A stretch of DNA of 64,000 nucleotides from Pseudomonadota bacterium (GCA_039190895.1 JBCCXY010000007.1:1357-65356), one strand, 5' to 3'. Shown: positions 22,261 to 59,766, counted from the stretch's first letter. Notes: a model not told the origin generated them from the letters alone. Numbers and translations: made by a program.

Positions 22261-22360
22261 CCCCGCGCCACGCCCTGTCTTCACCTGGCTGGAAAATACC
22301 TCCCCCGGAGGGCCGCTCTCCTCCCGAGCGGACCGTCCGGCACAAATGTGCATCGCCCTT

Positions 22361-43066: not shown

Positions 43067-43141
43067 TGGTTGCGTCGACGGGGATCGAACCCGCTACACT
43101 TGGATTAACATTCCAATGCTCTACCAATGAGCTACGTCGCT
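43067..43141 (-). tRNA. tRNA-Asn(GUU)-like, acceptor stem imperfect (possible pseudo-tRNA or att remnant)
   Basis: Minus-strand D-arm GCTCATTGGTAGAGC, anticodon loop ATGTTAA (anticodon GTT), T-arm GCGGGTTCGATCCCCGT, 3' ACCA. Acceptor stem has 5 of 7 pairs with two A.A mismatches when folded by eye. Confidence 0.5.
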
Positions 43142-43142
43142 A

Positions 43143-43217
43143 TGGAGGACGAGGAGGGGGTCGAACCCTCGGCCGGCGGATTAAGAGTCCGCTGCTCTAC
43201 CACTGAGCTACTCGTCC
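43143..43217 (-). tRNA. tRNA-Lys(CUU)
   Basis: GGACGAG-TA-GCTCAGTGGTAGAGC-A-GCGGA-CTCTTAA-TCCGC-CGGCC-GAGGGTTCGACCCCCTC-CTCGTCC-T-CCA. All stems pair. Anticodon CTT. 75 nt. Confidence 0.85.
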
Positions 43218-43393: not shown

Positions 43394-43430
43394 GGTAACA
43401 TTATTGCGCTAACGGGTAATATTATTGCGC
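43394..43430. repeat. AT-rich 16-bp direct repeat (GGTAACATTATTGCGC ... GGTAATATTATTGCGC)
   Basis: Two copies separated by 5 bp in the intergenic region between tRNA-Lys and the 3' end of the SWIM gene. Confidence 0.6.
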
Positions 43431-43537: not shown

Positions 43538-45532
43538 TCAGAGTGTGATGTGACAATCGCGTAAAAGCTCTGACACCAGATAGCTTACCCGCAAGGCCGC
43601 CTCGGGCGACCCCGCTGCTTCGAACTGTGCGAGCGCCGTGCTGACCGACAGAAGTCCCAGCGTTTCCGCTCGTTTCCGCACGTCCCTTAGCGGCTCCTCC
43701 GACCCACCGAATCGTAGCGCATTAGCCACGACGCCCAACACCTCTTCGCAGTACCACCGGATCGGATCCGGCCCGATGGCGGCGCCGCCACTCGGGCGGA
43801 GCCCGGACTTCAGAAACGACAGCGCCCGCTCGCCCATGGACCCGGCGCCACCCTCTTGTCGCCCGTACCGGTCGAAGGTCAGGTTCAGCACCGAGAACCC
43901 GGTGCGCCGTGTGTTCTGGTAAAGCGTCACCGGTACGATCAGCAGATCCATATCCGCAACGGTCACTTCGCACAGGACGGCGGCGATGGTTGACTTGTTA
44001 CGCTCAATCCAACGGATATCCTCCGCCCGGTCTGCCGGGACTGAAAGGGTCAGCGCCATTCTGTTGGTATCCAGCGCGGGTAGCCCGTAGCGCTGCGTGA
44101 TGTCGTCAAAGTCAGGCGCGCCGAAATCCGCAACCTCCAGCAAAAGCGGCAGCGAGATCCCGGTCCGCCGCAGCCCCTTCGGCATGCGCTTTGACAGATC
44201 CTCCAGGGCGTCGCCCCACTGGTCGAACATCACGCCCACGTCCGAGGCGGCTTGCAATGGATGCGGCCCGGCTTCAGACAGCGTGCCCCGCCCGTGATCC
44301 CATGCGATCTGCCGGTCGGATGAGACCCGGGCCCCGGTCAACGTCATCTGTTTGCCCATAAGCTTGTTTGCTACGCCCGCGCCCCACAGGGGGTTTGAAT
44401 AGGCCGTGCGGGGCGAAAAGCTTGGGTCCATCCCTGCCGCCCGGGCCTGCCCGGTGGCGTACCACGCCCCATCCTGCGAGAAGCCATAAATCCGCGCGCC
44501 CCGTGCTCCGCCATCGGCCTTCCAGTTCACCGCCCCCATCAGCCAAAGAGGGAACGGGTCCTGCTCGGCATAGTGGCGGCGAAGCACTCCGGTCAGCGCG
44601 GGGTCCGAGGGGTGCGCCTCCAGAGCCTGGGTCAGCGCAAAGGCAAACGCGGCGTCGCTGAGGAAGCGGTCGTCGTTATACGAGAAGTGATGCGTTCGGG
44701 CCTGCCGCGCTTGTCGGGCGAGCACGCGCAACAGGCCGGTTAGACGGGGGGCCGCTTGCGCTCGTGCCGAGATCGACAGGTCGAACAGCGTCTCTTCAGC
44801 GATCACCGAGCCGCCCCCGAACACGCCCCGCACGGCGGCTGCGATCGCTTTGCGGGTGGCTTCGAGGAACTCAATAGCAAGCGTTTCGGCTGTCGGTTCA
44901 TTCTGTATGAGCGTGTCGAGAGACTGCGTCCCCGCCTGCATCCGGGTGACCAGCGCGGCGGCGGTGACGGCGCGGCGCTTGGCGCTTTTTGGCCCTTTGT
45001 ACACCGCGCCTTTCAGACCGAGACCCGCGAGGAAGACGACAGGCTTGTCGGTGTCAGGCAGTTGGACTGACAGGTTCGGTCCATCCTCTGCCACCGTCGC
45101 CTCGGTACTGATCCGGGCCTGCGTGACGGCCTTGTCCCAGTCGGCGCCCGCGAATTTGCGGATGGCGGGTTCGTCGAGATCGGCGAGGTTTTCGGCGGCT
45201 GTACTGGTTGGCGTTTCTTCAACGGTCGCTTCTGCCGCGTCGTCGCCATCGGCGCGCAAGGCGAGGGTGGCTAGCAAAATGTGTCGGCAGATGCCCGTTG
45301 CGGGGCATGTGCATTTGGCGTCGGTCGGTCCGCTGTCGGTGATGTTTACGGTGAAGCCTTCGGCGTTGACTGTGGCGGACGTGGCATCGCGCGCCTCAAT
45401 GGTGGCTTTGCCCGCCTCCATGTCCCGCCCGGCACGGCGGACGAGGCCGACGGAGGCGAGCGCAGATAAGGCGGCCTCGTCGTGGGTGTCGAGCATGACC
45501 TTCAGGCTCATGACATGACCTCGGCCATCCAT
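43538..45532 (-). CDS. SWIM zinc-finger protein (YehQ-like)
   Basis: 664 aa. SWIM motif CTCPATGICRH (CxCx5CxH). Last gene of the six-gene module. Confidence 0.75.
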   Translation of the reverse strand: MDGRGHVMSLKVMLDTHDEAALSALASVGLVRRAGRDMEAGKATIEARDATSATVNAEGFTVNITDSGPTDAKCTCPATGICRHILLATLALRADGDDAAEATVEETPTSTAAENLADLDEPAIRKFAGADWDKAVTQARISTEATVAEDGPNLSVQLPDTDKPVVFLAGLGLKGAVYKGPKSAKRRAVTAAALVTRMQAGTQSLDTLIQNEPTAETLAIEFLEATRKAIAAAVRGVFGGGSVIAEETLFDLSISARAQAAPRLTGLLRVLARQARQARTHHFSYNDDRFLSDAAFAFALTQALEAHPSDPALTGVLRRHYAEQDPFPLWLMGAVNWKADGGARGARIYGFSQDGAWYATGQARAAGMDPSFSPRTAYSNPLWGAGVANKLMGKQMTLTGARVSSDRQIAWDHGRGTLSEAGPHPLQAASDVGVMFDQWGDALEDLSKRMPKGLRRTGISLPLLLEVADFGAPDFDDITQRYGLPALDTNRMALTLSVPADRAEDIRWIERNKSTIAAVLCEVTVADMDLLIVPVTLYQNTRRTGFSVLNLTFDRYGRQEGGAGSMGERALSFLKSGLRPSGGAAIGPDPIRWYCEEVLGVVANALRFGGSEEPLRDVRKRAETLGLLSVSTALAQFEAAGSPEAALRVSYLVSELLRDCHITL

Positions 45533-46629
45533 CCGGCGAACTTGTCGGGCGTCATCGCGCCGACCTGCATGCCGATATCGGCGGCTTGCGCGGCGATGCG
45601 TTCGTCATAGTAGGGCGCGCCGCCGTCATCCAGCGCCAGCAGGCCGATCATGCGGACGCGGGCCTCGGCCATGCGTGCCAGCGACGCGAGCAGGGGGCGG
45701 GGCGACGCGCCTTCGGCGAAATCGGTGATGAGGGCGAAGACGGTTCGCTCGGGGTCGTGGATGAAGTCTTCGCAGTAAGTCGTTGCGCGGCCTATGTTTG
45801 TGCCCCCGCCGAGTTGGACGGACAGGAGCGTTTCCAGAGGATCTTCCAGCTTGTCGGAGACGTCGAGGATCGAGGTGTCGAAGAGGACCATCTTCACCGT
45901 GATCCCCGGCAGCCCGCAAAGGATGGCGGCCATGACGGCGGCGTAGATCAGGCTGTCGGTCATGGAGCCGGACTGGTCGACGCAGAGGATTACCGTCCAC
46001 GGCAGCTTGCGCTTCTCACGGCTGTTGAAGCGCAGGTTTTCCGCGATGATGCGCTGGCGCTCAGGGTCGTAGGTTTTCAGGTTGTCGCGCAGGGTCGCGC
46101 GCCAGTCGAAATTAGCGGCGGACGCGATGTTGGAGCGGCGGAAGCGGTTGCGGCGGCCCGAGAAGGCGCGGATGACGTCGTGACGGATGCGCTCCATGAT
46201 CTCGCGGATGACGCGATCAGCTATCTCGCGCAGCTTGGCCTTCACCGTCGGATCGGCGCGGCCCTGGAAGCTGAGGAGAACTTTGAGCAGGTCCTGGTTT
46301 GGTTCAAGGCTGTCGAGGGTCTTCGGGTCCTTCAGCAGATCGGTCAGGCCGTATCGGTCAAGGGCGTGGGTTTGCAGCGTCTCGAAGACGCTATCCGGGA
46401 ACAGGCTGCGGGCCTTACCTAACCACTTCAGCGGCACCATCTGCGTCGGGTCGAGCGATCCGTGCGAGCGATCTCTTTGCAGGCCGCGGCCCTCGTATTC
46501 GCGCCCGTAGAGGAATTCGAGCGCGGTATCCATCTGGCCGTCCTGGCTGCCCGCGCCGCCGCAGTTGCCCAGCTTGGGCGTGGCGTATTTGCCAAGGGTG
46601 AGCCGCCAGCGGCGGGCGCCGTCGCTCAT
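45508..46629 (-). CDS. VWA-domain protein (YehP/CoxE-like)
   Basis: 373 aa. MIDAS motif ILCVDQSGSM. Overlaps the downstream SWIM gene by 25 nt. Confidence 0.85.
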   Translation of the reverse strand: MSDGARRWRLTLGKYATPKLGNCGGAGSQDGQMDTALEFLYGREYEGRGLQRDRSHGSLDPTQMVPLKWLGKARSLFPDSVFETLQTHALDRYGLTDLLKDPKTLDSLEPNQDLLKVLLSFQGRADPTVKAKLREIADRVIREIMERIRHDVIRAFSGRRNRFRRSNIASAANFDWRATLRDNLKTYDPERQRIIAENLRFNSREKRKLPWTVILCVDQSGSMTDSLIYAAVMAAILCGLPGITVKMVLFDTSILDVSDKLEDPLETLLSVQLGGGTNIGRATTYCEDFIHDPERTVFALITDFAEGASPRPLLASLARMAEARVRMIGLLALDDGGAPYYDERIAAQAADIGMQVGAMTPDKFAGWMAEVMS

Positions 46630-46654
46630 GGTGTGGCCTCCCGGGGTGCGGAGC

Positions 46655-46812
46655 CGCGCATTGACGGGCCCAGGACCGGCGATCCGACAGGTGTTCTGGG
46701 CGCTTTATGGTTGGGTCCCGCCGTCGTTCTTATCGACGCGCTTGTGGCACCCAAATCGCCGGGCCAGGGTTGGGCCCGGCGATGCGCGGCGGCCTTCGGC
46801 CTTGATTCCGCG
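46655..46812 (-). repeat. MITE/REP-like repeat, copy D (inverted orientation)
   Basis: Reverse complement reads CCTGCGCGGAATCAAGGCCGAAGGCCGCCGCGCATCGCCGGGCCCAACCCTGGCCCGGCGAT...GGATCGCCGGTCCTGGGCCCGTCAATGCGCGGCT. Sits in the 190-bp gap between the DUF5682-like and VWA genes. Confidence 0.8.
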
Positions 46813-46819
46813 CAGGGGA

Positions 46820-49210
46820 TCACTGCGCCGCTCCTTCCAGAAGCCAGCCGCCGAGGCCATCGCTTTCGATCCCGGCGCGGAGTGAGCGTTCGAGTTGTAA
46901 GGCTCGGGTGAGGTCGGCTTCGCCGTAGACGGTGGTGCTGGACAGCAGCTCTCCGGTCTGGACTTGGTGGATGCCGGCGAGTTCCGCCGCCAGCTTATCG
47001 ACTTCGCGCGGGTTTAGGGCGGTGAACGCGAGGCGCAGGTGGGGGAGCAGTTCGAGGAACTCGTCCTCCGGGATGTCGCACAGGAACCGGTCGACGACGT
47101 CCAGCAGCCCGCCCGCGTGCCACAGCAACATGGGGCTCGTATGGAGGATGCCGCGCAGAAGGCCGATCCGCTCGGGCAGGTCGAGGCTGACGCCAGTCAG
47201 CCGCCCCTCCAGCGCCTCGGTCAGTTGCTCGGCCCCGCGCAGGCGGGCCTGGACGCAGATGGCGAGCATGGCGCCGAGGATCACCGGGTCGGTCGTCTCG
47301 TCGGTGACGCGGTCGAGCGCGTCCTGAAGAAGCTCTGGGTCCAGCCCGGCTTCCTCTGCGTCGCGGAGGATTTCTGTCATCACGCGCAGGGCGCCAAGGC
47401 GTTCGCTGACCTGCTCTTCCGTGGTGCGGGGGAGTTCGTCGCAAAGGTAGACCAGCCGTTCGTACGCCGCCGCGACCACGCTTTCGACGTCGAGGTCCTC
47501 CGGTGCCCGCATCGGCCCGGTGGAGCGCTGGGTGAACATCAGCCGTTGCAGCGCGTGGGTGACCGTGTCGAAAGTGCCGAAGTTCCGGATATCCCCCGCG
47601 AGGTCCGACAGGAACGGCGCAAGGGCGGGCCCAAGGCCCGCAAGCAGGCCGCGCGACAGGAGGCGCACAAGCTCCGGCAGGTCGCGGGCGTTGCCTTCGG
47701 CGACCATGTCCATGCGCATGCGGTGGAGGAGGTTCACGCCCGCCGTCGGGAGATCGTCGCCGAGGACGGCGCATTCGATCAGATGGCCTTCGACCTGCGG
47801 CGACCACGCATAGACCCATTCCTCAAACAGCAGATCGGTGCGCGAGTTGTTAAGGTAATCCGGGCCAATCTCACGCGAGGCAAAGGTCGATCCGATCAGC
47901 ACCATGGCGTGGGCGAAGCGGGAGGCGTCAAAATGCGTGTCCTTGCGCCGGATATCCAGCTTGCGGCGCCGCTGCGCGCCGTCCGTGATGTCGAACCGCA
48001 GCTTGCCCGCCCGGCGGCGGACGTCTTCGACCAGCGGGGGCGACCCGGCGGAGGGCGGCACGTCCCCCAGCAGGTCGCCGCAGAGGTAGTCCTGCAGGCG
48101 CTGGGTCCAGACGTCGTTCACGGTCGTCTCGCCCTTGATCAGCGCGGCCTTCACGCCGTCGATCAGGTCATGCCGCAGCGCCCCGGGGCGGCCGCGCATG
48201 CGGGCCAGCGCTTCGGCGACGCGGATCGCCTCCACCTGAGAGGGCAGGGCGATCACGTTGCCCTCGTCGCGCATTTTGTCCGAGAACCGGGAGAGCAGGC
48301 CAATCGCGATGTCGCGCCAGTCCGGTGAGTCGGTTTCGGCCCTCTCCCACAGGTGCTGGTAGTAGCCCGGCTGTGGCAAGCCCGCCGCATAGCCGTTCAG
48401 TGCGTCGAGCGCGCGGAAGCCGTAGCGGACGAGGTAGCAATCGGCCTTCTCCTTGGTCGTCTCGGGCTTCTGCTTTTGCGGGTCGACCAGCGGCGCGGCG
48501 TGGAAGCCGCCCACGACGACGACGACCGGGCCGCCGTCGTCGAGCGCCTTCAGGACGGCGTTCGCCATGTGGGCTTCGCGGTTGAGGTCGCCGCTTTCGG
48601 CGATGCTGGCCTCGGGCGTGGCGGCGCGGATGCCGAGGCAGTAGACGCCGACCTCGCCGAAGAATTCGCGCCAGGTGCCGGTGGCGAGCTGGGTTTCGAA
48701 GAGGTGGTCCCAGAGTTCGAACCCGTCGCGGCAGCCCACTTGCTTCGACAGGGCGCGGACGTAGTCGTTGCTGTCGAAATGCTGCTCGTCGGTGAGCACG
48801 ACCGGCTCGGTCTGTTCGGGCGGTGCGCCAAGCGCTTTGTCGGCGGCGGGGGCGTCGATGAACTCCAACGCGGCGCCAACCTTCTGGCCCTCTTTCAGGG
48901 CGACGTATTCCGGCGAGTGCGCGCAGAAGGGGTAGTACCCGGCGACCCGGGGGCGGTCTCCCTTGGGGTCGACGAGGGCGACGAGGGCGACGGGCGGTTT
49001 GGTGGCCTTGTCTAGCAGCAGTGGGATCTGCGCGGCGAAGTCCTGCGGGGCCTCGATGAGGATGTGCTTGGGCTGGACCTCGGCAATGAGGCGCTGGAGG
49101 TGCCACGCGCAGGCGGGGGAGTGGTGCCGGATGGGCACCACGTAGAGGCCCCGGTCGGGCTGGAACAGGTCCGCCCGGAGGCGTTCGAAATTGGGGCCGT
49201 CGTCAGCCAC
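46820..49210 (-). CDS. large uncharacterised protein (YehM/DUF5682-like)
   Basis: 796 aa. Its position between the MoxR ATPase and the VWA protein and its size match YehM. Overlaps the MoxR gene stop. Confidence 0.65.
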   Translation of the reverse strand: MADDGPNFERLRADLFQPDRGLYVVPIRHHSPACAWHLQRLIAEVQPKHILIEAPQDFAAQIPLLLDKATKPPVALVALVDPKGDRPRVAGYYPFCAHSPEYVALKEGQKVGAALEFIDAPAADKALGAPPEQTEPVVLTDEQHFDSNDYVRALSKQVGCRDGFELWDHLFETQLATGTWREFFGEVGVYCLGIRAATPEASIAESGDLNREAHMANAVLKALDDGGPVVVVVGGFHAAPLVDPQKQKPETTKEKADCYLVRYGFRALDALNGYAAGLPQPGYYQHLWERAETDSPDWRDIAIGLLSRFSDKMRDEGNVIALPSQVEAIRVAEALARMRGRPGALRHDLIDGVKAALIKGETTVNDVWTQRLQDYLCGDLLGDVPPSAGSPPLVEDVRRRAGKLRFDITDGAQRRRKLDIRRKDTHFDASRFAHAMVLIGSTFASREIGPDYLNNSRTDLLFEEWVYAWSPQVEGHLIECAVLGDDLPTAGVNLLHRMRMDMVAEGNARDLPELVRLLSRGLLAGLGPALAPFLSDLAGDIRNFGTFDTVTHALQRLMFTQRSTGPMRAPEDLDVESVVAAAYERLVYLCDELPRTTEEQVSERLGALRVMTEILRDAEEAGLDPELLQDALDRVTDETTDPVILGAMLAICVQARLRGAEQLTEALEGRLTGVSLDLPERIGLLRGILHTSPMLLWHAGGLLDVVDRFLCDIPEDEFLELLPHLRLAFTALNPREVDKLAAELAGIHQVQTGELLSSTTVYGEADLTRALQLERSLRAGIESDGLGGWLLEGAAQ

Positions 49211-50312
49211 GCAGCGCGTCTTTGGCCGAGCTGTAGAACGCCGACCACGCCTTCGACGTGCGCGAACGGGGTTTGGCGATCTGGTCGATATAGGCGCGCA
49301 GCTTGCGGGCGTCTTCAGGGTCGTCCTTGAACACCACGCCGCCCAGTTGCCGCGCGATGTGCCCTGCGGTCAGGTTCCCGTCGCCGAGATACGCGGCCTC
49401 CAGCACGGCGGCGTGGGTGACGTTCACGGCCTCGGCAGTGGACATGACCGAGTTGGGGACGGCGACGCTTGCCCCGTCGGCGGTCTTGCCGGTGCGCAGG
49501 TCTCGGAAGACCGAGACGACGACGTCGAGCACGTCGGGCTTCACGTCGGGCGACACGGGTGCGTCGGCCATGCGTTCGCTGACCTGCTTGCTGACGAGGG
49601 TCTTCTCGAAGTCCGCATCGGCAATTGGGTGGACCGTTTCGAAGTTGAACCGACGCTTCAGGGCGCTCGACATGTCATGCACGCCCCGGTCGCGGAGGTT
49701 GGCGGTGCCGATCAGGTTGAAGCCCGGCACGGCGCGGCTTTCGACCTCCGCCCCGAGTTCGGGGATCGAGATCGTCTTTTCGGACATGAGAGAGATGATC
49801 GCGTCCTGCACCTCGGGCGCGCAGCGGGTGAGTTCTTCGATCCGGGCGATCTGGCCGCCGCGCATGGCGGTGAGGATGGGTGAGGGGATCAAGGCGCGCT
49901 CGCTTGGGCCTTCGGCGAGCAGCATGGCGTAGTTCCAGCCGTAGCGCAGGTGATCCTCCACGATCCCGGCGGAGCCCTGGACAACCAGCTTGGACGTGCC
50001 TCCGATGGCGGCGGAAAGGAGTTCCGACAGAAGCGACTTGGCAGTGCCGGGTTCGCCGACGAGCATCAGCCCCTGCTGCCCCATCAGCGAGACGATGCAG
50101 CGGTCGACCAGCGGGTCGTCACCGAAGAACTTCTGCGACACGTCCAGCGACGCATCGCCCAGAATGAACCGCCGCACCGCGCGGGGCGACAGGCGCCAAC
50201 CCTTGGGCGTTGGGTCCGTATCGGCCGCCTTCAAGCGCTCCAACTCGCCCGCATAGCGGATTTCGGCAGGGGCTTTTTGGGTTTCGTCTACCATGCGCAC
50301 TTCTTCTCCCAT
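49203..50312 (-). CDS. MoxR-type AAA+ ATPase (YehL-like)
   Basis: Walker A LVGEPGTAKS; AAA_5/MoxR architecture; about 360 aa. Start may be the internal MVDET at 50294. Confidence 0.85.
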   Translation of the reverse strand: MGEEVRMVDETQKAPAEIRYAGELERLKAADTDPTPKGWRLSPRAVRRFILGDASLDVSQKFFGDDPLVDRCIVSLMGQQGLMLVGEPGTAKSLLSELLSAAIGGTSKLVVQGSAGIVEDHLRYGWNYAMLLAEGPSERALIPSPILTAMRGGQIARIEELTRCAPEVQDAIISLMSEKTISIPELGAEVESRAVPGFNLIGTANLRDRGVHDMSSALKRRFNFETVHPIADADFEKTLVSKQVSERMADAPVSPDVKPDVLDVVVSVFRDLRTGKTADGASVAVPNSVMSTAEAVNVTHAAVLEAAYLGDGNLTAGHIARQLGGVVFKDDPEDARKLRAYIDQIAKPRSRTSKAWSAFYSSAKDALRG

Positions 50313-53300
50313 TCCGGGTCATGCGCGCCCTTTTCGGCCATCGCATGAAAGTCGTTCCAGCATTCCGACAGCAGCACTTCGGGCACATCCCCCAGCTTGA
50401 TCGGTTGGTGCATCCGCACGCCCGCCTTCACAAAGCCAAGCGAAATCAGCGCACACGGCTGGTTTTCTTCGGGCAGAATGTTGCCCGTGAAATCCACCAC
50501 TGCGGTTACCCCGGCGCTTGTGAAGGGCTTGCGGTACTCGTGGAACCAGCCGCCGTCTTCGGCGGGCCCACGCTCCCACCCCAGTTTGGTGGTGAGGCCG
50601 CGGAGCTGGAAGGTCTCCATCACCCAGCCCTTGCGATCTTCGATCTTGGTTGCGTCCCGCTCTTCCTCATCAAGCCGCATCAGAGAGCGCCCGAACTGGA
50701 TAAACAGCGGCTTGACCTCATAGTCCTTCAGATGCTGCGCCCAGGCTTCGGTTGTGGCCTCGTCCAGCATCGCGCCATGGGCCACGCGGATCGCGTCGAA
50801 CTGCTCCAGATCGACCTCCGTGTCTTCGGCATCCGTGAACTCACCCTCCGCCGTCGGGCGGAAGGTGCCAAGGGGCTGGCCCTCCGCGTCGACGCCTTGC
50901 CACACGATCCGCTCGATCATCCGACGCATCACGGGGTGGCCGTGGAAGTCGCGCATCCAGGCTTCCAGCGACCAGCTTCGCGCGGCGCAAAGCGCTTCGT
51001 ACAGGCGCCCCGACTGCATGGACACGACCTGCTTGAGTTCCTTCTTCGACGCGGTGAGCTGCTTTTTCGAGGTTTTCGTCGCGTCGTCGTCCCCGGCGGG
51101 CAACCCCTTGATAACCTTGCCATCCGGGTTCTGCAGAACGAAGGTCAGGTCTTCGCTTAGCGTCGCCCGATATGGCTTTTCGTCCGGGCCACAGGGCAGG
51201 TCGAGATGGCCCTCATCGTCGAGCCCGGCAGACGGGATCACCCGGTCGCCCAGCTCGTCCATCGACCAGCCCATGCGGTCGGCGACGGTCTGCACCAGCT
51301 CTCCCGCGTAGGCCTGAACGCCCTTCTGCTTCAGCCGCGTTGCCGCCGCGATGACGACTTGCAGCGAGACCGGATCACCCTTGTTCGCCAGCACATCCAG
51401 CAGCGATGACGCTTGAGACGTGCGCGAGCCGTGGTTCCTGAGGTACCCCCGCACGCGATCCGCAGCAATGGTCGCGGGAGCGCGGGACGCGAAGGCTAAA
51501 ATGCCCTTCGCCGCCGCGCCGGAGTTCACGTAGTTCGACTTGATCTCGCGCCGCAGGTCGGCCTTGCACTGCTCAAGCGTGTATTCGGGGTAATAGCGCT
51601 TGTACATGGCGTAGCGTTGCTGGGCGTTCGCCTCTGCATACGCGTTTGCCTCTTCGTCCGAAGCCGTGGTGGTGTCGTAGTTGACCCAACTGTCCAGCAC
51701 CCATTGCGACAACGTTTCGGCGCTGTCGGGGGCGAGTTGGTCGAGGAAGATCTCGAACAGTGCGTTGCCGCCGGGTTGCTTTAGCTTGAAGCCGAGGAAC
51801 ATCCACCAGCGTGGCACGTCCGGGGGTACCGCCTTCCCGGCGCGGAACTTCAGCTTCGGCAGCGTGTCCAGGTTGATCCAGTCAAGCTTCGACAGGTTCG
51901 CCTTCTTCAGCCCCGCCTCCGCCTCGCGGATCAGCGCTGTCGGACCGACATAGTCGTCGAGCGGCACGCCAAGCTCTTTCATCGCCGTCAGGATGGCGGC
52001 CTTGGCGAGCTCGCTTTTCTCTTTTTTCAGGCGCTTCTTCAGCGCTGGAATGGCATCCGATTGGCCGCGTTGGCCGATCCACTCTGCCGCGCCCGCGCGG
52101 ATTGCCTGACGGCTGTCATCGAGCAGCGCGATCAGGCGCCCATCCACCTCGGGCACATCGGCAAGCAGCTTGCGCGCCTCGGCCTTGCCGAACTTCCGCT
52201 CCCCCGTTGCGACATCCAGGAGGGGGCCAAAGAAGCGCATCGGCACTTTCGGCATTTTGCCGAGGCATTTGATCGCCCTCGGCTTGTCCAGCACAACATC
52301 CTGTTCGGCATCGCCTTGCCCGAAGCCGCAGCCCAAAACATCAAGGTTTTCAGCCAGATACGGCCACAGCGCCTCGGGTGCGATATCGTCGACCTCGCTG
52401 CCCAGATACGACTCGTCGGGGATCAGGCAGCGCAGCACATCTCCCCGCTTTGCCTTGCGCGTCTGACGGTTGCGCCAACCACCGATGGTCAGGTGCGCCC
52501 CCATCTCTTCCCAAAGGGCGTCGATCGCGCGCAGGTCAGACTCGGGCTTCCCGACATAGGATCGGAGCAAGTCGGCAAACGGGCCATGGTTATAGCCGCT
52601 CAGCCAGTGTTCGATTGAATACAGGCTGTTGAACGCCAGCGAGATCGCCTGCTTCTCGGACATTTTGCTGAGGTGCCGTTGCGCCACCTGATGCCCAAAC
52701 GTCGTGAGGAAATAGATCGCGCCCCGGCCCTTATCGTCTGACAGCGCTTTGCCTTCGATCAACTTGCAGGCCAGTTTCACAAAGCTCGGCGACAGGTGCG
52801 GCTGCTTGTAGAAGAACTTTCGGTCCTTGTTGGCGGCGTTCCGTTCGTCGATGCGCTTGTTTTCCTTCTTCAGGACGCCTTCAAGCTCTGCGATGTCATC
52901 GGGGCCGAGGGTGACCAACTCACCCGTTTTCAGCGGGCGCAGCGGCGGGATTTCGACCCGTGTGCCGTCGATGGCGGTATACCCGGTCGCGTCGTCTGGT
53001 GCCCCGCCTGATGCCCCGGCAGCCGCCGTCGCAACAGACAGCGCATTCTCGATGGCGCTGACGATGCGGGCGGTTTTTTCGGTTTTGGCATGGGCCTCCA
53101 ACGCCTCACGCGCGGTGGGCGAGCCGATCTTGACCAGCACGTCCACCATCCCGGCGCGGACGCCGACCTTGCCGGTTGCCAGAAGGTCCACCGCCTTTGG
53201 CTCAATCACTTCGGGCGTTGCGAGGCCAAGCGCCTTCACAGCGGCTTCCCGAACGGCCTTTGAGCTGTCGCCTGCCAATTCGAGCAGGAATTCCAGAAAC

Positions 53301-54010
53301 GGCCCCTTGTCGGCAAGCTCGTAAAGCGCGAGTTCGTTGATGAAGGCTTCACGGCCACCGGCGGTACAGCGCCGGACCCCGGCTATGGCTGCGTCTGGAT
53401 GCGCTTCGATCAAAGGGGCGATATCGCAGAGCTGACGCAGATATTCGCCTTTGATCGGCTCGTAGTAGCTTTGGCTGATCCAGTACAGCACCTCGAACAC
53501 GTCTTCGAGCGTTCCGCCGCAGGCCTTTGCCACATCCGCGAACCGGTCGGGCGTCAGCCCCTTTGGAGCCTCTTTCCGGGGTTCCGGAGGCCAGACGTGC
53601 CGTGAGGCCATCGAGGCGGTGAACGCCTCGGAAAAGAAGACCCGCAGGGCTGTTGGGGCCTTGTCCGATCCCACCACGCGGTCGGGCAGCGGATTGGCTG
53701 TCGCGGCCAGGACCTCGGCATAGCGGACCAGCATCGGGATGTCGTACGGATCAAGGTCGAGGAACAGCGGCGCGCGCTTCTTGTGCTGACCCTGACCCGT
53801 CTGCGCATAGTAATGACCCGGCGTGCATAGCAAGAGCGGATCGCCAGAGGCGTGGACGCCCAACGTCGATAGCACCGTTGCGGGCTCTCCACTCAGGACG
53901 TAATCGACGGCCTTGTTGCCGAGTTCTGACTGGACGTTGTTCAGGCGGATAAGGTCTGCATTGATGATCTTGCCCGTTGAGCTTGAGAGGAGCCTTTTGA
54001 AGAAACTCAT
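50288..54010 (-). CDS. giant DUF4132-like protein (MolR-like), paralog B
   Basis: 1240 aa from ATG at 54010 (MSFFKRLLSSSTGKIINADLIRLNNVQSE). The track ORF extends 540 nt further as an out-of-frame Arg-rich overlap. C-terminal roughly 150 aa is homologous to the C-terminus of the upstream paralog (WF.EYRK.F..AG...DL.F.G......LSE.WND.H..A). Confidence 0.75.
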   Translation of the reverse strand: MSFFKRLLSSSTGKIINADLIRLNNVQSELGNKAVDYVLSGEPATVLSTLGVHASGDPLLLCTPGHYYAQTGQGQHKKRAPLFLDLDPYDIPMLVRYAEVLAATANPLPDRVVGSDKAPTALRVFFSEAFTASMASRHVWPPEPRKEAPKGLTPDRFADVAKACGGTLEDVFEVLYWISQSYYEPIKGEYLRQLCDIAPLIEAHPDAAIAGVRRCTAGGREAFINELALYELADKGPFLEFLLELAGDSSKAVREAAVKALGLATPEVIEPKAVDLLATGKVGVRAGMVDVLVKIGSPTAREALEAHAKTEKTARIVSAIENALSVATAAAGASGGAPDDATGYTAIDGTRVEIPPLRPLKTGELVTLGPDDIAELEGVLKKENKRIDERNAANKDRKFFYKQPHLSPSFVKLACKLIEGKALSDDKGRGAIYFLTTFGHQVAQRHLSKMSEKQAISLAFNSLYSIEHWLSGYNHGPFADLLRSYVGKPESDLRAIDALWEEMGAHLTIGGWRNRQTRKAKRGDVLRCLIPDESYLGSEVDDIAPEALWPYLAENLDVLGCGFGQGDAEQDVVLDKPRAIKCLGKMPKVPMRFFGPLLDVATGERKFGKAEARKLLADVPEVDGRLIALLDDSRQAIRAGAAEWIGQRGQSDAIPALKKRLKKEKSELAKAAILTAMKELGVPLDDYVGPTALIREAEAGLKKANLSKLDWINLDTLPKLKFRAGKAVPPDVPRWWMFLGFKLKQPGGNALFEIFLDQLAPDSAETLSQWVLDSWVNYDTTTASDEEANAYAEANAQQRYAMYKRYYPEYTLEQCKADLRREIKSNYVNSGAAAKGILAFASRAPATIAADRVRGYLRNHGSRTSQASSLLDVLANKGDPVSLQVVIAAATRLKQKGVQAYAGELVQTVADRMGWSMDELGDRVIPSAGLDDEGHLDLPCGPDEKPYRATLSEDLTFVLQNPDGKVIKGLPAGDDDATKTSKKQLTASKKELKQVVSMQSGRLYEALCAARSWSLEAWMRDFHGHPVMRRMIERIVWQGVDAEGQPLGTFRPTAEGEFTDAEDTEVDLEQFDAIRVAHGAMLDEATTEAWAQHLKDYEVKPLFIQFGRSLMRLDEEERDATKIEDRKGWVMETFQLRGLTTKLGWERGPAEDGGWFHEYRKPFTSAGVTAVVDFTGNILPEENQPCALISLGFVKAGVRMHQPIKLGDVPEVLLSECWNDFHAMAEKGAHDPEWEKKCAW

Positions 54011-54011
54011 G

Positions 54012-57000
54012 TCAGTAAAGCCCTTTCTTCTTCCAGTCCGGATCAAACTCTCCGACCTTGGCGATTTCGTGAAGGTCGTTCCAGACTTCTGACAGCAGAA
54101 GCGGCGGGACCTGCTTGAGTACGACCGGCTGTGCCGACCACGCATTGCTCTCCGTCTTGGTGAACTGCATAAAGTCGATGGCGGCTGCGAAATCCTCGGC
54201 CCCCATGTAGCTGCCGGTGAAGTGCAGGTCGGCGTTGAGGCCCGCGCCCCGGAACTCTTTCCGGTAGGCGTCGTACCCGCCGCCATCGCCGATGGGCCCC
54301 CGCTCGTACCCGCATTTCTTCGCGGCCCCGCGCAGCTTGAAGTTGGTTGTGAGCCAGCCCTGACGATCCTCAAGCTTGGTCGAGCTCGCCATCTCTTCAG
54401 TGAGCGTCCGCACCGGGCGAGACACCTGCGGGAACAGCGGGTCGACCTCGAAATCCTTGAGATGCTGCAGCCACGCGTCCCGTGTTTCCTCGGCGATATT
54501 GGCTGTATGGGCCATGTCGATCTTCGCAACGTCCGACAGGTCGACGTCATCGCCGTCCGCGTCCATCACGTCGCCTTCCGCTGTCATCCGAAAGGTCTTG
54601 AGCGGGGCGCTGTCGGCATCGAGACCCCGCCAGATCAGCCGCTCGACAAGGCGACGCATGATCGGGTGCGTGGCGAGGTCATCCTGCCAGGCTTCCGCCT
54701 CCCAATCGCGTGGGGTCAGCATCGCCTCATACAGCCGCGCCTGCTGCTGTTCGGCCGCCGCCTTCACGGTTTTCTTGGCGGCGCTCAGCAGGGCCTTCGA
54801 CTCTTTAGTGTTCTCGTCCTTGCCCGCCGGGATCGACTTCACCTCTTTCCCCGCCGGGTTGAACAGCCGCACCGTCAGGTCGCTGTCCAGCCGGGCGACA
54901 TAGGCCTTTTCCTCCTCGCCCACGGGAAGGGGCAGCGTGCCATCCTCCTCAAACCCGCCGGAGGGGATTGAGCGGTCGGCCAACTCCTCTTCCGTCCACC
55001 CGCGCGCTTCGGCAAGCTCGCCCACGAGGGTCGAGGCCAGCTCTCGCACGGTGCGCTGGCGGAAGCGGGTCGCTGTGGCGACCAGCACCTGAATGGCATC
55101 GCGCGTGCCCATGGCGTACAGCACCTCCACCAGCGACTTCGCCTGCGCCACGCGCTTGCCGTGCTTCTTCAGGTGCGCTGCGATGCGGGGCCCCGCCTGC
55201 GTCGGTGTTGCGCCGTGGGTCAGGGCAAGGATGCCTTTGCTGTCGGCGCCAGAGTTGATGTACTCCTTCGACATCCCCATCATCAGCGACTGCACAATCT
55301 CGTCCTCGGTGCGGTTCCGCGCCATCCAATGGTTCGGCATGCTCATGATCTTGCGCGCCTGCTCGACCGCCCTCCGACGCACGTCGTCGTTCGACGGCTT
55401 GGCGACGTCATACGACATCCACGCGTCCAGCACCCAATCGGCAAATGCCTGTGCGCTGTCCGGGGTCAACTGTTTGAAGTAGAGGCCGAACAACGGCGTA
55501 CCGAGCGGCGATTTCAGCTTGAGCGCCAGCCGCAACCAGGCATCGGCAAGCACCGGGTCCGCCGTGCTGCCATCGGCCCAGTGCAGCGCCGGGGCCGAGC
55601 TGAGCTCAAGCCACTTGATCTTCTCGTTAGGCAGTTTGTCGACCAGCGTGCGAGCTTCTTTGAGCAAAGGCTCCTTCCCGAGATACGGGCTGGTGTCGCC
55701 ACCCAACGCGGCAAGCCCCGAGATCATGTCGGCTTTCGCCATCTCGGATTTCTCGGTCTTCAGGCGCTTGGCAATCGCCGTTGCGGCCTTGGCAGAGCCT
55801 CGATCCGCCAGGAATCGCGCCGCATTCGCACGAACCGCCTGGCGCTTGTCCTTCAGGAGTGTGACCAACTCGTCGTCGATGCCCTCGACATCTCGCAAAA
55901 GCTCTTGCGCCGGGCCGTGGAGCTTGGGGCGCGCGTCGATCGCGCAGAACAGCACCGCCGGTCGCAGGGCTTCGGGCAGTGTTGGAAAGTCGGCGGCTAC
56001 CCTCAGGGCGCGCAGGTTGACATGGATGTCGGTGTTGCGCGGTGGCAGAGCCTCGATCACGCTTTGCAGATGCGGGGTCGCAATCTCCCACACGCCGGGG
56101 AAGGACCGTGCGTATCGCCGGTCAGCGGACGTCCCCAAAAGCGCTTCGAGATAAATCAGGGTGTTCGGGCGCGGATCGGGCTCGTGATCGTCGGGCGTTT
56201 GCCGCGACTTGTCTTGATCTTCAACGGCGTCGAACACCTGTTTGAGGCTCAACCTGCCGTCCGTGATCGCGCTTTGAATATGGGCGCCAATCCCCCTCGT
56301 TTGCCGACCAATCAGGACGGGCAGTCCCTTCCTGTGGGAAACTGTCAGATCGATAAGCCGCCGCATGGGCACCTGGTCCAGCACCGATTCAATCACGGCA
56401 TAGGCATTTTGCTGGTGGCGGTATGTGAAGCTCGGAAGTTGCGGGCGCGCGTCCGGCGTGACTTGGGTGTTGAGCGCATCGAACCACGTCTTTGCGATGT
56501 ACTTCGTCTCGGGCGGCTTCGGTTTGTCACCCCGATTGGGGTTCGTGCTTTTCCTCCAGTAGACCAGCCGGGATTCGTACCCAAGCTGTTGCTCTTCATC
56601 GATGACTTTCTCGATCTCTTGCAACTGCTTGAAGAAGGCCTCGTCCAGCGGGCTGCCGCCGTCATCGACCAGCAACTCGTGGGACGGCAGCGTCACATGT
56701 GCGCCGGTCACGTCGATGTAGCCGTTTTCGACTTCGTCCAACTCAGCCGTAATCGCCGAGGTGTTCAGAACGGCGTCCAACGCCGTCAGCACCGCCTGCG
56801 ACTTTTCCTTCTCTCGGCGCGCTTTCAGCGCCTCAAGGGCTGTCGGCGTGCCATAGGCGCCCAGCAGTTGGACCGCCATGGTCCGGCTGTTCGCCTTGCC
56901 CGCCTGCAACAGTTCTACGGCCTTGGCCTCAACCATCTGCGGATCCTGCGTCTCCAGCACAAGGCGAGCGGCCTCGCGGACCTTCGAGGATGTCGCCTCG

Positions 57001-57653
57001 AACTGCTGGAACAGGTACTCCGCCATTTTCGGCGTCTTCATGACGGGAAGCGCCTTGTGCGATTCGATCGACGACGCTTTTCCCTGCGCATCGCACCGCT
57101 CGATTGCCTGAATGTAATGCGCCGGATCCACGTTGTCCCAGAACCCTTCGGGCGGGACGAAGCTCGTTCCGTATCGACCCGGAAGCAGATGCACGATGAC
57201 ATCGACGTCCGTTCCTCCAAGAAGTCGCGTGGCGGCGATAATGTCGTGCGGCGTCGTTGGGTTGTCAGGCTTGTGCCCATAGGTCCTGGCGGTCAGCGCA
57301 AACAGGTTTCGGATGATTTCGGGCGTATTCGTCAGATGCTGGTCTTCGCGAAACCGGCGCGGCAGGCCCCATTTCATCGCATGGCGCAGTTGCACATAGC
57401 GGGCCAACCGCTCGGGCTGGCCGCCCATGTTTCTCGGCAGGTTTTGCAGCGCGGTGTTCACATCGCGATCAAGCCGAGGGTGGGGGATCTGCAGCGCATC
57501 CAGTTCGGCGAGGATGCCGTTGGCCGCGCCATTGATCAGGTATTCCTCCGCCCGCCGGGCGGCGCCGAAGCTTGTTTGGTCAAGGAAGCTGAAGAGGGAG
57601 GTGGGTTTTGCTTTGACTGATCCGAATAGTCCCTTCAGCGCCTTGCCGAACAT
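54012..57653 (-). CDS. giant DUF4132-like protein (YehI-like), paralog A
   Basis: 1213 aa. N-terminus MFGKALKGLFGSVKAKPTSLFSF. HEAT-like repeats. C-terminal domain shared with paralog B. Stop lies 1 nt from paralog B's start. Confidence 0.75.
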   Translation of the reverse strand: MFGKALKGLFGSVKAKPTSLFSFLDQTSFGAARRAEEYLINGAANGILAELDALQIPHPRLDRDVNTALQNLPRNMGGQPERLARYVQLRHAMKWGLPRRFREDQHLTNTPEIIRNLFALTARTYGHKPDNPTTPHDIIAATRLLGGTDVDVIVHLLPGRYGTSFVPPEGFWDNVDPAHYIQAIERCDAQGKASSIESHKALPVMKTPKMAEYLFQQFEATSSKVREAARLVLETQDPQMVEAKAVELLQAGKANSRTMAVQLLGAYGTPTALEALKARREKEKSQAVLTALDAVLNTSAITAELDEVENGYIDVTGAHVTLPSHELLVDDGGSPLDEAFFKQLQEIEKVIDEEQQLGYESRLVYWRKSTNPNRGDKPKPPETKYIAKTWFDALNTQVTPDARPQLPSFTYRHQQNAYAVIESVLDQVPMRRLIDLTVSHRKGLPVLIGRQTRGIGAHIQSAITDGRLSLKQVFDAVEDQDKSRQTPDDHEPDPRPNTLIYLEALLGTSADRRYARSFPGVWEIATPHLQSVIEALPPRNTDIHVNLRALRVAADFPTLPEALRPAVLFCAIDARPKLHGPAQELLRDVEGIDDELVTLLKDKRQAVRANAARFLADRGSAKAATAIAKRLKTEKSEMAKADMISGLAALGGDTSPYLGKEPLLKEARTLVDKLPNEKIKWLELSSAPALHWADGSTADPVLADAWLRLALKLKSPLGTPLFGLYFKQLTPDSAQAFADWVLDAWMSYDVAKPSNDDVRRRAVEQARKIMSMPNHWMARNRTEDEIVQSLMMGMSKEYINSGADSKGILALTHGATPTQAGPRIAAHLKKHGKRVAQAKSLVEVLYAMGTRDAIQVLVATATRFRQRTVRELASTLVGELAEARGWTEEELADRSIPSGGFEEDGTLPLPVGEEEKAYVARLDSDLTVRLFNPAGKEVKSIPAGKDENTKESKALLSAAKKTVKAAAEQQQARLYEAMLTPRDWEAEAWQDDLATHPIMRRLVERLIWRGLDADSAPLKTFRMTAEGDVMDADGDDVDLSDVAKIDMAHTANIAEETRDAWLQHLKDFEVDPLFPQVSRPVRTLTEEMASSTKLEDRQGWLTTNFKLRGAAKKCGYERGPIGDGGGYDAYRKEFRGAGLNADLHFTGSYMGAEDFAAAIDFMQFTKTESNAWSAQPVVLKQVPPLLLSEVWNDLHEIAKVGEFDPDWKKKGLY

Positions 57654-57789: not shown

Positions 57790-59187
57790 TTATAGCTGGG
57801 CGATGGAGCGTTCCGTTGGCGCTTTAACGACCTGTTCCGCCGCGCGAGGGGCAAGGCCGAACAGGATCAGGGCTGGGCCCGACAGCTTTGCCTCGGTCAG
57901 CGTCGGTTCCAGGGTGTCGAGCGTGGCCTCCAGGATCCGCTGATTGGGGCGGGAGGCGTTTTCGACAACCGTCACAGGCGTCGTGCGCGGCGTGCCGTGC
58001 ATCAGCAGGCGGCCTTGCACAAACCGCGCGGCGCGCTTGCCCATGTAAATGGCCGCGACCGCGCCGGGCTTGGCCAGCGCGGCCCAGTCGTGATCGGCAA
58101 AGCCCTGGATGTCATGACCGGTGATCAGGCGCACGCCAGAGTTCCGCGTGCGCTTTGTCAGGCTTTGACCGATGGCCGCAACGGCGGCTGAGGCCGACGT
58201 GATGCCGGGCACGATGGACCAGTCGAGGTTTGCGTCGGTGACAGCCTCAATCTCTTCGTCGAGGCGACCGAAAACGGCGGGATCGCCGCCCTTCAGGCGC
58301 ACGACCTGCGCGCCGGATTGGACGTGATCGACGATGAGCCTGTTGATGTCGTCCTGCGCCATGGCGGGCCCGAAGCCTTCTTTCCCTGCCGGGATCAGGA
58401 GGGCCTCACGTCTCGCGAGTTCAAGGATCTCTGGCGCGACGAGGCGGTCGTGGATGACGACATCGGCGGTGTCGAGGGCGTTGCGCGCCTTCAGCGTCAG
58501 CAGTTCGGGGTCTCCGGGGCCCGCACCGACGAAAGCAACGTGACCGGGTTCAACCTTGGCCGCGATATGCGTAGCCAGCAGGTCGTGCAGCGCGGCTTGG
58601 AGGGGGCGGCCCTCGGCCTGCGCTAGCGGGCCTGCGCGGTCGTACCAGTCGGCCCAGAACGCGCGGCGGGGGCGGCCAAAGTCGAGGATCTCGGCCGTGT
58701 CGCGGAACGCCTTGCCCGCTTTGGCAAGGAGGCCGAGCGCGGGGGACAACGTCTCTTCCAGGTGCCGTTTGATCTTCCGGGCTAGGACGGGCGCCGCGCC
58801 TTCGGTGCCGATGGCGACCGTCACCGGGTCGCGGTCGACGATGGCCGGGGTGATGAAATCGGACCCGTGCAGGTTGTCGACCATGTTGGTCAAAACGCCC
58901 GCTGCCTTCGCCACAGTCGCGACACGCGCGTCTTCCGCGTCGTCGTCCGTCGCGGCATAGACGAGGGCTTTGTCGTCAGCGTCATTCTCCGCGAACGGGC
59001 GCTGGATGAGGGTGAGGCGATCTTCGGCAACCCAACCTGCGATCAGCGGATCGGGATCGCTGGCGTAGACCATGATCGTCGCCTCGGTTTTCATCAGAAG
59101 GCGCAGCTTGGCAACGGCAGCCTCACCGCCGCCCGCGACGGCGATTGTCTTGCCCTCGACGGCGAGGAAGATCGGAAAGTGTTTCAT
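57790..59187 (-). CDS. cysG: siroheme synthase (precorrin-2 dehydrogenase/ferrochelatase + uroporphyrinogen-III C-methyltransferase)
   Basis: MKHFPIFLAVEGKTIAVAGGGEAAVAKLRLL N-terminal Rossmann. C-terminal SAM methyltransferase domain (VAFVGAGPGDPELLTLKARNAL...VVRLKGGDP). ATG at 59187. Confidence 0.85.
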   Translation of the reverse strand: MKHFPIFLAVEGKTIAVAGGGEAAVAKLRLLMKTEATIMVYASDPDPLIAGWVAEDRLTLIQRPFAENDADDKALVYAATDDDAEDARVATVAKAAGVLTNMVDNLHGSDFITPAIVDRDPVTVAIGTEGAAPVLARKIKRHLEETLSPALGLLAKAGKAFRDTAEILDFGRPRRAFWADWYDRAGPLAQAEGRPLQAALHDLLATHIAAKVEPGHVAFVGAGPGDPELLTLKARNALDTADVVIHDRLVAPEILELARREALLIPAGKEGFGPAMAQDDINRLIVDHVQSGAQVVRLKGGDPAVFGRLDEEIEAVTDANLDWSIVPGITSASAAVAAIGQSLTKRTRNSGVRLITGHDIQGFADHDWAALAKPGAVAAIYMGKRAARFVQGRLLMHGTPRTTPVTVVENASRPNQRILEATLDTLEPTLTEAKLSGPALILFGLAPRAAEQVVKAPTERSIAQL

Positions 59188-59304
59188 GGTGCAGAATATA
59201 GGACATATTCCCAATATGGCGCCATCTCTTGCTTCAAATAAGGACATATGTTCTTTATGGCGGGCGACTTGGGACGAAACAGGCGGATTTTGCAGGAGGC
59301 CGGG

Positions 59305-59766
59305 ATGAGTGTTCGGATCGATGACATGGACCGGAAGATCATGGCGGAGCTTCAGAAGAACGCCGGGCGGTCGCTGGACGAGATCGCGAAGGCGGTCGGG
59401 TCGTCGAAGACCCCGGTCTGGAACCGCATCCGAAAGCTGCGCGAGGCCGGAATCGTCGGCGCCGAGACAGTTGTGCTGAACGCCGAAGCGCTTGGGTTCG
59501 AGGCGTGTTTCTTCGTGCTGATTCGGACGGCGGAGCATGAGGCCGACTGGCAGGCGCAGTTTCTGAAGGCCCTCCGCGAGCGGCCCGAGGTGCAGGAGGC
59601 GCACCGTTTGGCGGGGGATATCGACTATATCCTCAAGGTGCGGGTCGAGAACGCGCGCGCCTACGACGTGTTTTACCAGGCGTTGATTTCGGAGGTGAAG
59701 ATCTTCAACGTTACCGCGCTCCTGTCGATGGAAGAGATCAAGTCCACCACCGCCTTGCCCCTTTAG
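59305..59766 (+). CDS. Lrp/AsnC-family transcriptional regulator
   Basis: MDRKIMAELQKNAGRSLDEIAKAVGSSKTPVWNRIRKL HTH plus a C-terminal RAM domain. ATG at 59305 with a GGAGG RBS. Confidence 0.85.
   Translation: MSVRIDDMDRKIMAELQKNAGRSLDEIAKAVGSSKTPVWNRIRKLREAGIVGAETVVLNAEALGFEACFFVLIRTAEHEADWQAQFLKALRERPEVQEAHRLAGDIDYILKVRVENARAYDVFYQALISEVKIFNVTALLSMEEIKSTTALPL

Follow-up and report, generated by a model that had tools for sequence, protein, structure and literature searches.

What do six tightly packed genes for a MoxR AAA+ ATPase, a VWA protein with a MIDAS motif, a SWIM zinc-finger protein, a DUF5682 protein and two giant DUF4132 proteins accomplish together? The question is raised by positions 43538-57653 of a 64,000-nucleotide (nt) stretch of DNA from a Pseudomonadota bacterium (GCA_039190895.1, JBCCXY010000007.1:1357-65356), which is referred to in its whole length as the window. 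Some 14 kb of coding sequence make up the cluster, among whose products are two of the genome's largest proteins. A first-pass annotation made from the sequence had likened it to the molR/yehI-yehLMPQ genes of Escherichia coli and held that no function is established for either. Indeed, none is reported in the literature found on DUF4132, DUF5682, DUF5691, yehLMPQ or MoxR in combination with vWA and SWIM. The identity and composition of the cassette can be stated with near certainty. As for its activity, an ATP- and MIDAS-gated hydrolase complex, possibly stress- or conflict-related, is the reading favored here, with confidence slightly better than even.

A cassette of five protein families

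All six open reading frames (ORFs) described in the first-pass annotation were found where it had placed them, on the minus strand. They are listed below with the features that adjoin them; lengths are in amino acids (aa).

54012-57653, minus strand: giant 1, 1213 aa, with HEAT_2 and a C-terminal DUF4132 domain (residues 935-1116; Pfam E 4.7e-34)
50288-54010, minus strand: giant 2, 1240 aa, with HEAT and DUF4132 (residues 964-1145; Pfam E 3.2e-36)
49203-50294, minus strand: YehL-subfamily MoxR AAA+ ATPase, 363 aa from Met7 (AAA_5, E 1.2e-32)
ATG at 50312, minus strand: alternative MoxR start, Met1, giving 369 aa (ORF 49203-50312)
46820-49210, minus strand: DUF5682 protein, 796 aa (PF18934, E 9.4e-109), with a TIKI/TraB/ChaN-like alpha/beta domain at about residues 20-270 followed by an alpha-solenoid
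46630-46819, minus strand: intergenic repeat element of ~180 nt, strongly folded, in the DUF5682-VWA junction
45508-46629, minus strand: CoxE-type VWA protein, 373 aa (VWA_CoxE, PF05762, E 1.8e-47)
43538-45511, minus strand: SWIM zinc-finger protein, 657 aa from Met8; the longest ORF, 43538-45532, gives 664 aa
57654-57789, minus strand: upstream intergenic region of 136 nt between the cysG-like gene and giant 1, the presumed promoter region
43067-43217: tRNA-Lys and tRNA-Asn, 320 nt downstream of the SWIM gene

The domain assignments for which an HMM check had been proposed (DUF4132, DUF5682, AAA_5, VWA_CoxE and SWIM) are all made by Pfam, the last of them marginally, at 19.7 bits against a cut-off of 19.6; an NCBIfam scan of the cassette proteins returned nothing close to any cut-off. 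The signature motifs are also present as first described, and they hardly vary among related loci. Walker A GEPGTAKS of the MoxR protein is kept in 74 of 74, the MIDAS sequence DQSGS (VWA residues 218-222) in 69 of 70, and the SWIM motif CTCPATGICRH in 69 of 69. This CxCx5CxH motif occupies residues 74-84 in the 664-aa numbering and is at least 90% conserved in 59 homologs.

The overlapping or 1-nt-spaced starts claimed for the cluster are seen at four of its five junctions. Read directly, the junction of giants 1 and 2 is TGA-C-ATG, with a spacer of 1 nt. Giant 2 overlaps the MoxR gene by 7 nt with the Met7 start and by 25 nt with Met1, MoxR overlaps DUF5682 by 8 nt, and VWA and SWIM share an ATGA overlap when the annotated Met8 start is used. 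However, a gap of 190 nt separates the DUF5682 and VWA genes, the only junction with neither an overlap nor a 1-nt spacer. The protein sizes first given for the giants and DUF5682 hold; for MoxR and SWIM, start and junction readings together with gene calls make 363 aa and 657 aa the likely products. The longest ORF of giant 2 reaches 54550, 540 nt into giant 1 (1420 aa); its product is set at 1240 aa because of ortholog lengths and the 1-nt-spaced ATG at 54010. With these starts, the six genes are predicted to form an intact, translationally coupled operon. No excess of terminators was found inside it, and no sigma-70 consensus was found in the 136-nt region upstream of giant 1.

The first-pass annotation had also called for a co-occurrence analysis across genomes. 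One genome per species was scanned with a DUF5682 alignment, which gave 243 confirmed loci. Eighty of these were retrieved, spanning Alpha-, Beta- and Gammaproteobacteria, Acidobacteriota, Verrucomicrobiota, Cyanobacteria and Bacillota. Sufficient flanking sequence was available for 58 loci, and 53 of them, in seven phyla, carry the genes on a single strand as DUF4132-MoxR-DUF5682-VWA-SWIM. The five families are therefore colinear far beyond this genome. Annotated copies of this cassette also lie on a plasmid of Bacillus mycoides and on linear plasmids of Streptomyces. Rearranged forms exist as well. In Agrobacterium vitis the giant is placed between DUF5682 and VWA. A plasmid of Deinococcus taeanensis (L083, 4783-12829) encodes SWIM-DUF5691-AAA-small ORF-DUF5682-VWA without DUF4132. 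This variant shares MoxR, DUF5682, VWA and SWIM with the window and keeps the candidate active-site residues of DUF5682 discussed below, but its SWIM gene comes first, DUF5691 stands in place of the DUF4132 giant, and there is an extra small ORF. No paper mentioning DUF5691 was found in the literature. The DUF5682 family is phylogenetically wide yet numerically rare: in a set of 1.84 billion representatives, 3463 clusters matched at E <= 1e-3. The nearest named relatives of the window protein, at 63-68% identity, come from the Rhodobacteraceae Cognatiyoonia, Yoonia, Tateyamaria and Sedimentitalea.

What surrounds the cassette is far less constant. Clustering of 606 flank ORFs yielded no sixth conserved family, none being present in more than 9 of the 80 loci and positions varying, and among 147 nearest-neighbor ORFs no Pfam family or PADLOC model appeared more than three times. 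Flanks differ in all 80 related loci, including relatives whose DUF5682 protein is 67-68% identical, and none of the window neighbors (a siroheme-synthase-like gene, a P450, valine-catabolism genes, an SPFH protein and a LysR regulator) recurs beside it at any other locus. Copies of the cassette occur on megaplasmids, and that of Yoonia maritima YPC211 (L004) lies on the 215-kb plasmid unnamed2. The cassette is a self-contained unit of five families that move and are inherited together, and by its changing surroundings it appears accessory and laterally reshuffled.

The five families do not evolve at one pace. Between the window and a close relative (L003), identity is 85% for MoxR, 82% for VWA, 67% for DUF5682, 58% for giant 2, 53% for SWIM and 48% for giant 1, and the ranking of the components is the same out to other phyla. 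Judged from these identities, MoxR and VWA form a slow-evolving core, with the giants and SWIM evolving roughly three times faster. This gradient would separate a conserved motor from variable subunits, the giants and SWIM probably being recognition subunits.

The E. coli yeh locus offers the closest comparison. In K-12 the order is yehF(WGR)-yehH(pseudogene)-yehI-yehK-yehL-yehM-yehP-yehQ, and molR is a pseudogene; in an E. coli strain with the intact gene, MolR (1262 aa, WGR and DUF4132) is followed by YehI (1210 aa). Both loci hold the same five families in the same order on a single strand. The MoxR protein is 44% identical to YehL over its full length (355 aa), VWA 42% identical to YehP over the full length, and DUF5682 27% identical to YehM, also over the full length (772 aa). 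SWIM and YehQ are 31% identical only over the N-terminal ~120 aa (YehQ residues 15-133). Judged by these alignments, the window module is the Rhodobacteraceae counterpart of molR/yehI-yehLMPQ. Among the differences, the small gene yehK has no equivalent in the window because the junctions overlap, and the E. coli locus is without the 190-nt repeat found inside the window operon.

The correspondence had first been put as almost one-for-one, which is right for gene order and for the MoxR, DUF5682, VWA and SWIM homologies but not for the giants. Two tandem divergent giants are indeed common to both loci, and the claim that those of the window are paralogs sharing a C-terminal DUF4132 domain is borne out by Pfam on both and by their identity to each other (34% over ~1050 aa; MolR and YehI are 37% identical). 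However, each window giant matches MolR and YehI equally, at 29-32% and only over the C-terminal ~300 aa. A pairing of the giants with YehI and MolR also fails on domain content: MolR has a WGR domain, which occurs in neither window giant nor in any of the 33 giants scanned across phyla. WGR on the first giant is thus an addition of the E. coli lineage and no defining trait of the cassette.

Most cassettes carry a single giant, with ortholog lengths of 1190-1280 aa across phyla. In a neighbor-joining tree, the MoxR-adjacent giant 2 clusters with the single giant of most cassettes. The upstream giant 1 joins the upstream copies found in the Yoonia clade, together with the only giants that Paracoccus, Parasulfitobacter and Microbulbifer possess. 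By this grouping giant 2 would be the ortholog of the usual single giant, and giant 1 an "extra" upstream copy, either an old paralog or one recruited from a different lineage of cassettes, and no recent tandem duplicate. The tree puts the duplications in different lineages, so the E. coli pair would have been acquired separately. The DUF4132 alignment contains invariant Arg, His, Asp and Gln residues (R973, H996, H1049, D1067 and Q1076), which may point to a further active or binding site. A sequence search of the PDB with the giant recovered only designed HEAT proteins at E > 0.1, and homologs sought with the C-terminal DUF4132 region were mostly fragments, uninformative about architecture. 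An Acetobacter plasmid (L087) encodes a solitary 932-aa DUF4132 protein amid toxin-antitoxin genes; DUF4132 proteins therefore occur outside the cassette too.

The DUF5682 protein as a candidate hydrolase

The protein for which an enzymatic role can be proposed is DUF5682. Its alignment shows the invariant motifs RHHSP, LIEAP, FIDLP, WDHLFE, REAHM and GGFH, which suggest that the N-terminal domain belongs to the TIKI/TraB/ChaN/erythromycin-esterase superfamily. When residues 1-270 were scanned permissively against Pfam, the matches were TraB_PrgY_gumN (E 0.13) and the ChaN family (Cofac_haem_bdg, E 0.21), both at GGFH and both far under the gathering score; the similarity lies below every curated threshold. 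The domain is predicted to have an alpha/beta fold with a parallel beta-sheet core, as in known superfamily members. Residues H29/H30, E53, E172, R211/E212 and H237 are invariant in a diverse set of 32 sequences and likewise in the E. coli YehM, Streptomyces and Deinococcus proteins.

The TIKI superfamily includes ChaN, HopBA1, PMT and the Ere-family protein Bcr135, and its catalytic set consists of two His and two Glu plus a conserved basic residue (PMC6254334). The DUF5682 residues follow a like order, with a spacing of His(+24)Glu ... Arg(+26)His compared to His(+28)Glu ... Arg(+29)His in RRSP. Together, superfamily fold and invariant His/Glu/Arg residues argue that DUF5682 is a probable hydrolase with a candidate His/Glu/Arg site. 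It differs from RRSP, PMT, HopBA1 and Bcr135/136 in an insertion of ~90 residues between the two halves of the domain and in the joining of this domain to a 500-aa solenoid within an ATPase cassette. The structure matches of the solenoid are generic. PDB sequence searches with the full-length protein and with its N-terminal domain found no relative.

DUF5682 is also tied to its neighbor. Three independent DUF5682-VWA_CoxE fusions (cluster representatives P0354, P0410 and P0398; 1248, 1262 and 1342 aa) keep the gene order of the cassette. By the Rosetta-stone argument the two proteins would work in contact, and a physical link between DUF5682 and VWA is predicted.

The proposed ATPase motor and its possible outputs

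YehL represents one of seven MoxR subfamilies (PMC3893208). It is the sole E. coli MoxR subfamily among the seven without a functional lead, and the literature found reports no function for it. The only solved relatives of the window ATPase recovered by a sequence search of the PDB are the AAA modules of Midasin/Rea1 (E 1.8e-8). For the SWIM and VWA proteins, PDB sequence and profile searches gave no relative.

Other MoxR-VWA pairs, such as RavA-ViaA, CbbQ-CbbO, NorQ-NorD and CoxD-CoxE, act on clients that include Rubisco, nitric oxide reductase, carbon monoxide dehydrogenase and Complex I. As in these pairs, the window encodes a MoxR AAA+ ATPase together with a VWA/MIDAS protein, and its VWA belongs to the CoxE family of Pfam. 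However, the known pairs adjoin the genes of their client enzymes, whereas no client gene is conserved near the Yeh-type cassette, in which three further large proteins are obligatory partners. A pair dedicated to a neighboring client was rejected on these grounds, as no flank family reaches more than 9 of the 80 loci or more than three of the 147 neighbor ORFs. The missing client thus argues against a dedicated chaperone of the CoxDE or NorQD type. That the VWA protein stimulates the ATPase or bridges it to a target may be suggested, indirectly, by its conserved MIDAS and its fusions to DUF5682. By analogy, a MoxR-VWA motor acting on the cassette's own proteins is fairly probable; that DUF5682 provides the catalytic output is put forward more tentatively.

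The mechanism proposed here combines these elements. An AAA+ ring of the YehL type would join with the VWA adaptor and its MIDAS to form an ATP-driven remodeling motor, like other MoxR-VWA pairs and Midasin. The VWA protein would couple this motor physically to DUF5682, and the motor would gate or position the TIKI-type hydrolase site on a scaffold of HEAT/DUF4132 giants. Target or signal recognition would be supplied by the giants and SWIM, and the complex would hydrolyze a protein or ester substrate, one not encoded beside the cassette. The biological role is probably a dispensable function of the stress or conflict type.

Regulation in other bacteria provides leads of this kind. One list of E. 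coli SOS genes includes molR and credits it with a known box (PMC6590174). In keeping with that listing, the K-12 locus (L082, 4450-4465) has the LexA-like sequence CTGGATAAAATTACAG 10 nt upstream of yehF, which represents the 5' part of the molR pseudogene. In hns/stpA mutants, expression of both yehL and yehM rises (PMC3686432). Depletion of DdrO in Deinococcus radiodurans strongly induces a DUF4132 gene as well as a WGR gene.

Several observations weigh against a stress- or conflict-related hydrolase complex. ChaN, among the best fold matches of DUF5682, binds haem and is no enzyme. The first Glu of the canonical E-x-H motif of the TIKI superfamily is not conserved in DUF5682, where an Ile/Arg position replaces it, and neither Foldseek nor PDB profile searches recovered the relationship between DUF5682 and TIKI. 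The DUF5682-VWA fusions could be gene-calling read-throughs. Unlike molR in K-12, the window operon has no LexA-like box upstream: the alphaproteobacterial box GTTC-N7-GTTC is absent there and has a single match in the window, at 6335. The link to DNA damage is therefore a lead that may not transfer. Finally, of 5426 complete E. coli genomes, 5333 (98%) have one copy of yehM at a fixed place in the chromosome, which is unusual for conflict systems.

This last point bears on a more specific proposal, namely that the cassette serves anti-phage or anti-plasmid defense. The giants and SWIM would sense an invader or DNA damage, and the MoxR-VWA motor would release a TIKI-type toxic hydrolase, leading to abortive infection. 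Such a role is compatible with the ATP-gated hydrolase mechanism but is itself unlikely. It would fit a cassette that is patchy across phyla, sits in a new genomic context at every locus, has copies on megaplasmids and sets fast-evolving large repeat proteins beside a conserved NTPase core. TIKI-fold domains serve as toxin effectors in RRSP, PMT and HopBA1, and in E. coli the locus combines H-NS silencing with its SOS listing, a pseudogenized molR in K-12 and transposon-disrupted copies in ST131. The ATPase also has a sub-threshold match to bpMoxR, the Pfam model for the ATPase of ternary conflict systems (25.8 bits against a cut-off of 27, with only 50 residues aligned), but the cassette contains no beta-propeller protein and does not qualify as a MoxR-vWA-beta-propeller ternary conflict system. 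None of the six proteins matched any of 5027 PADLOC models (PADLOC-DB v2, E <= 0.01). Nor are defense genes enriched nearby: the models seen in the neighbor ORFs are generic, each in at most three of the 147, and the window neighbors are ordinary metabolic genes. The family is essentially absent from phage genomes, and its fixed site in E. coli differs from variable defense islands.

Resemblance to larger AAA_5 machines raises two further possibilities. Midasin/Rea1 and the chelatases each combine an AAA_5 ATPase with a MIDAS domain, as does the cassette, and the ring, helical region and MIDAS of Midasin are colinear with MoxR-DUF5682-VWA. Unlike Midasin, the window ATPase has a single AAA module per chain, and nothing was found that links the cassette to ribosomes or tetrapyrroles. 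One possibility is a split Midasin-like assembly factor. Its AAA_5 ring and MIDAS protein, with the DUF5682 solenoid serving as "linker," would remove a protein from a large housekeeping complex, e.g., the ribosome. Midasin being the only solved ATPase relative found by sequence, and the reproduction of its ring-linker-MIDAS arrangement by the gene order and the DUF5682-VWA fusions, would suit such a factor. However, it is highly improbable for a cassette as rare and patchy as this one, which E. coli K-12 can do without, its molR being a pseudogene; moreover, the solenoid matches are generic and the TIKI-like domain would be left unexplained.

The other possibility is a machine for cofactor or metal insertion, in which the MoxR-VWA pair loads a metal or tetrapyrrole onto, or by way of, a subunit of ~1250 aa and DUF5682 is a ChaN-like haem binder. 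The VWA protein belongs to the CoxE family and has a sub-threshold match to a putative cobaltochelatase model, and an AAA_5 ATPase, a VWA protein and a subunit of ~1230 aa mirror the stoichiometry of chelatases. The giants recall the third subunit, CobN/BchH, in size, yet show no homology to it: all 33 scanned contain only HEAT and DUF4132 and no CobN/BchH-type domain. A class I chelatase (CobNST/BchHID) was rejected for lack of such a large subunit. MolR's historical name, "molybdate metabolism regulator," and the siroheme-synthase-like gene directly upstream in the window also point to cofactors, but the Deinococcus paper saw no co-regulation with molybdenum-cofactor genes, and the cysG-like adjacency is unique to this window and was therefore discarded as evidence. 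No client-enzyme or cofactor-pathway gene is conserved beside the cassette, and the invariant His/Glu/Arg set of DUF5682 resembles the catalytic set of TIKI hydrolases. Cofactor insertion is accordingly rated as quite unlikely.

A bolder form of the hydrolase complex, termed "split Midasin," is speculative and of low probability: the MoxR ring and MIDAS adaptor would mechanically license DUF5682, as a TIKI-family protease or esterase held on the HEAT/DUF4132 scaffold, after the giants and SWIM detect DNA damage or an invader. If true, the cassette would be a new stress or immune effector system reaching from E. coli to Streptomyces and cyanobacteria. The E. coli gene cluster already had an annotation, and Pfam families cover its components; the window adds one more member, from a marine alphaproteobacterium. 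New here are the TIKI-like annotation of DUF5682, its fusions with VWA, the conservation gradient, the DUF5691 variant and the recognition of the two giants as old paralogs. The order and motifs of the cassette are conserved across Proteobacteria, Bacillota, Actinomycetota and Cyanobacteria, and 98% of E. coli genomes carry it. Experimental handles are provided by the candidate DUF5682/YehM site (H29/H30, E53, R211 and H237), the predicted DUF5682-VWA link, the split between conserved motor and variable recognition subunits, and the regulatory leads (SOS and H-NS in E. coli, DdrO in Deinococcus).

The intergenic repeat, the tRNA pair and other sequences in the window

The 190-nt gap between DUF5682 and VWA holds a G+C-rich repeat of ~180 nt, and the junction is less than ~50 nt in most relatives, with a maximum of ~190 nt. 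Copies of the repeat lie at 11865-12110, 12115-12320 and 14185-14390 on the plus strand and at 46625-46840 on the minus strand, two of them in tandem near 12 kb. The four share 71% mean column identity, and the element has long internal complementarity with a fold energy of -96.9 kcal/mol (z = -3.96 relative to shuffled controls). No Rfam family matched it. The first-pass annotation had the module interrupted by a MITE-like repeat. The repeat does lie within the operon, but it sits between two genes and breaks none, since VWA retains its own GGGAGG ribosome-binding site. The other copies occur in unrelated intergenic regions 32 kb away, which marks it as a genome-wide dispersed repeat and no island boundary. 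It is a dispersed intergenic element that landed between the DUF5682 and VWA genes.

The tRNA pair reported beside the module is present, and the module had been called likely mobile or accessory on account of the pair and the repeat. "Accessory" agrees with the variable flanks of the 80 loci and the megaplasmid copies, but the argument for mobility does not hold. By that argument, a mobile or genomic island would have inserted at the tRNA pair carrying the module as cargo, and the repeat would be a sign of mobility. The short distance to tRNA-Lys/tRNA-Asn, a repeated structured element within the operon, flanks shared with no relative and the Yoonia maritima plasmid copy all accord with an island. 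However, no integrase, transposase or recombinase is present among the ten neighboring genes, no duplicate of the 3' end of either tRNA was found within the 64-kb window, and G+C (0.62-0.685) stays within the window's range. The module, moreover, is on the 5' side of the tRNA genes, the usual integration side being 3'. Mobility inferred from tRNA and MITE is thus unsupported, and a tRNA-borne island is very unlikely.

The window contains two smaller repeats as well. In an AT-rich patch between the SWIM stop codon and tRNA-Lys (43394-43430), the direct repeat GCGCAATAAT(A/G)TTACC occurs in two copies 21 nt apart and might act as an operator or belong to the tRNA promoter. A 36-nt inverted pair (22279-22314 and 59844-59879) is 92% complementary, its second copy being located where a short gap separates the P450 gene from the cysG-like one, and may be another small dispersed element or a shared terminator. 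Outside the cassette, a 160-nt duplication with 71% identity (40596-40755 and 40926-41085) lies inside an ABM-domain ORF (40370-41089) and suggests a tandem two-domain ABM protein. The siroheme-synthase-like ORF (57790-59604; TP_methylase, NAD_binding_7 and Sirohm_synth_M) has ~140 residues before its first domain, and its GTG start may be over-extended.

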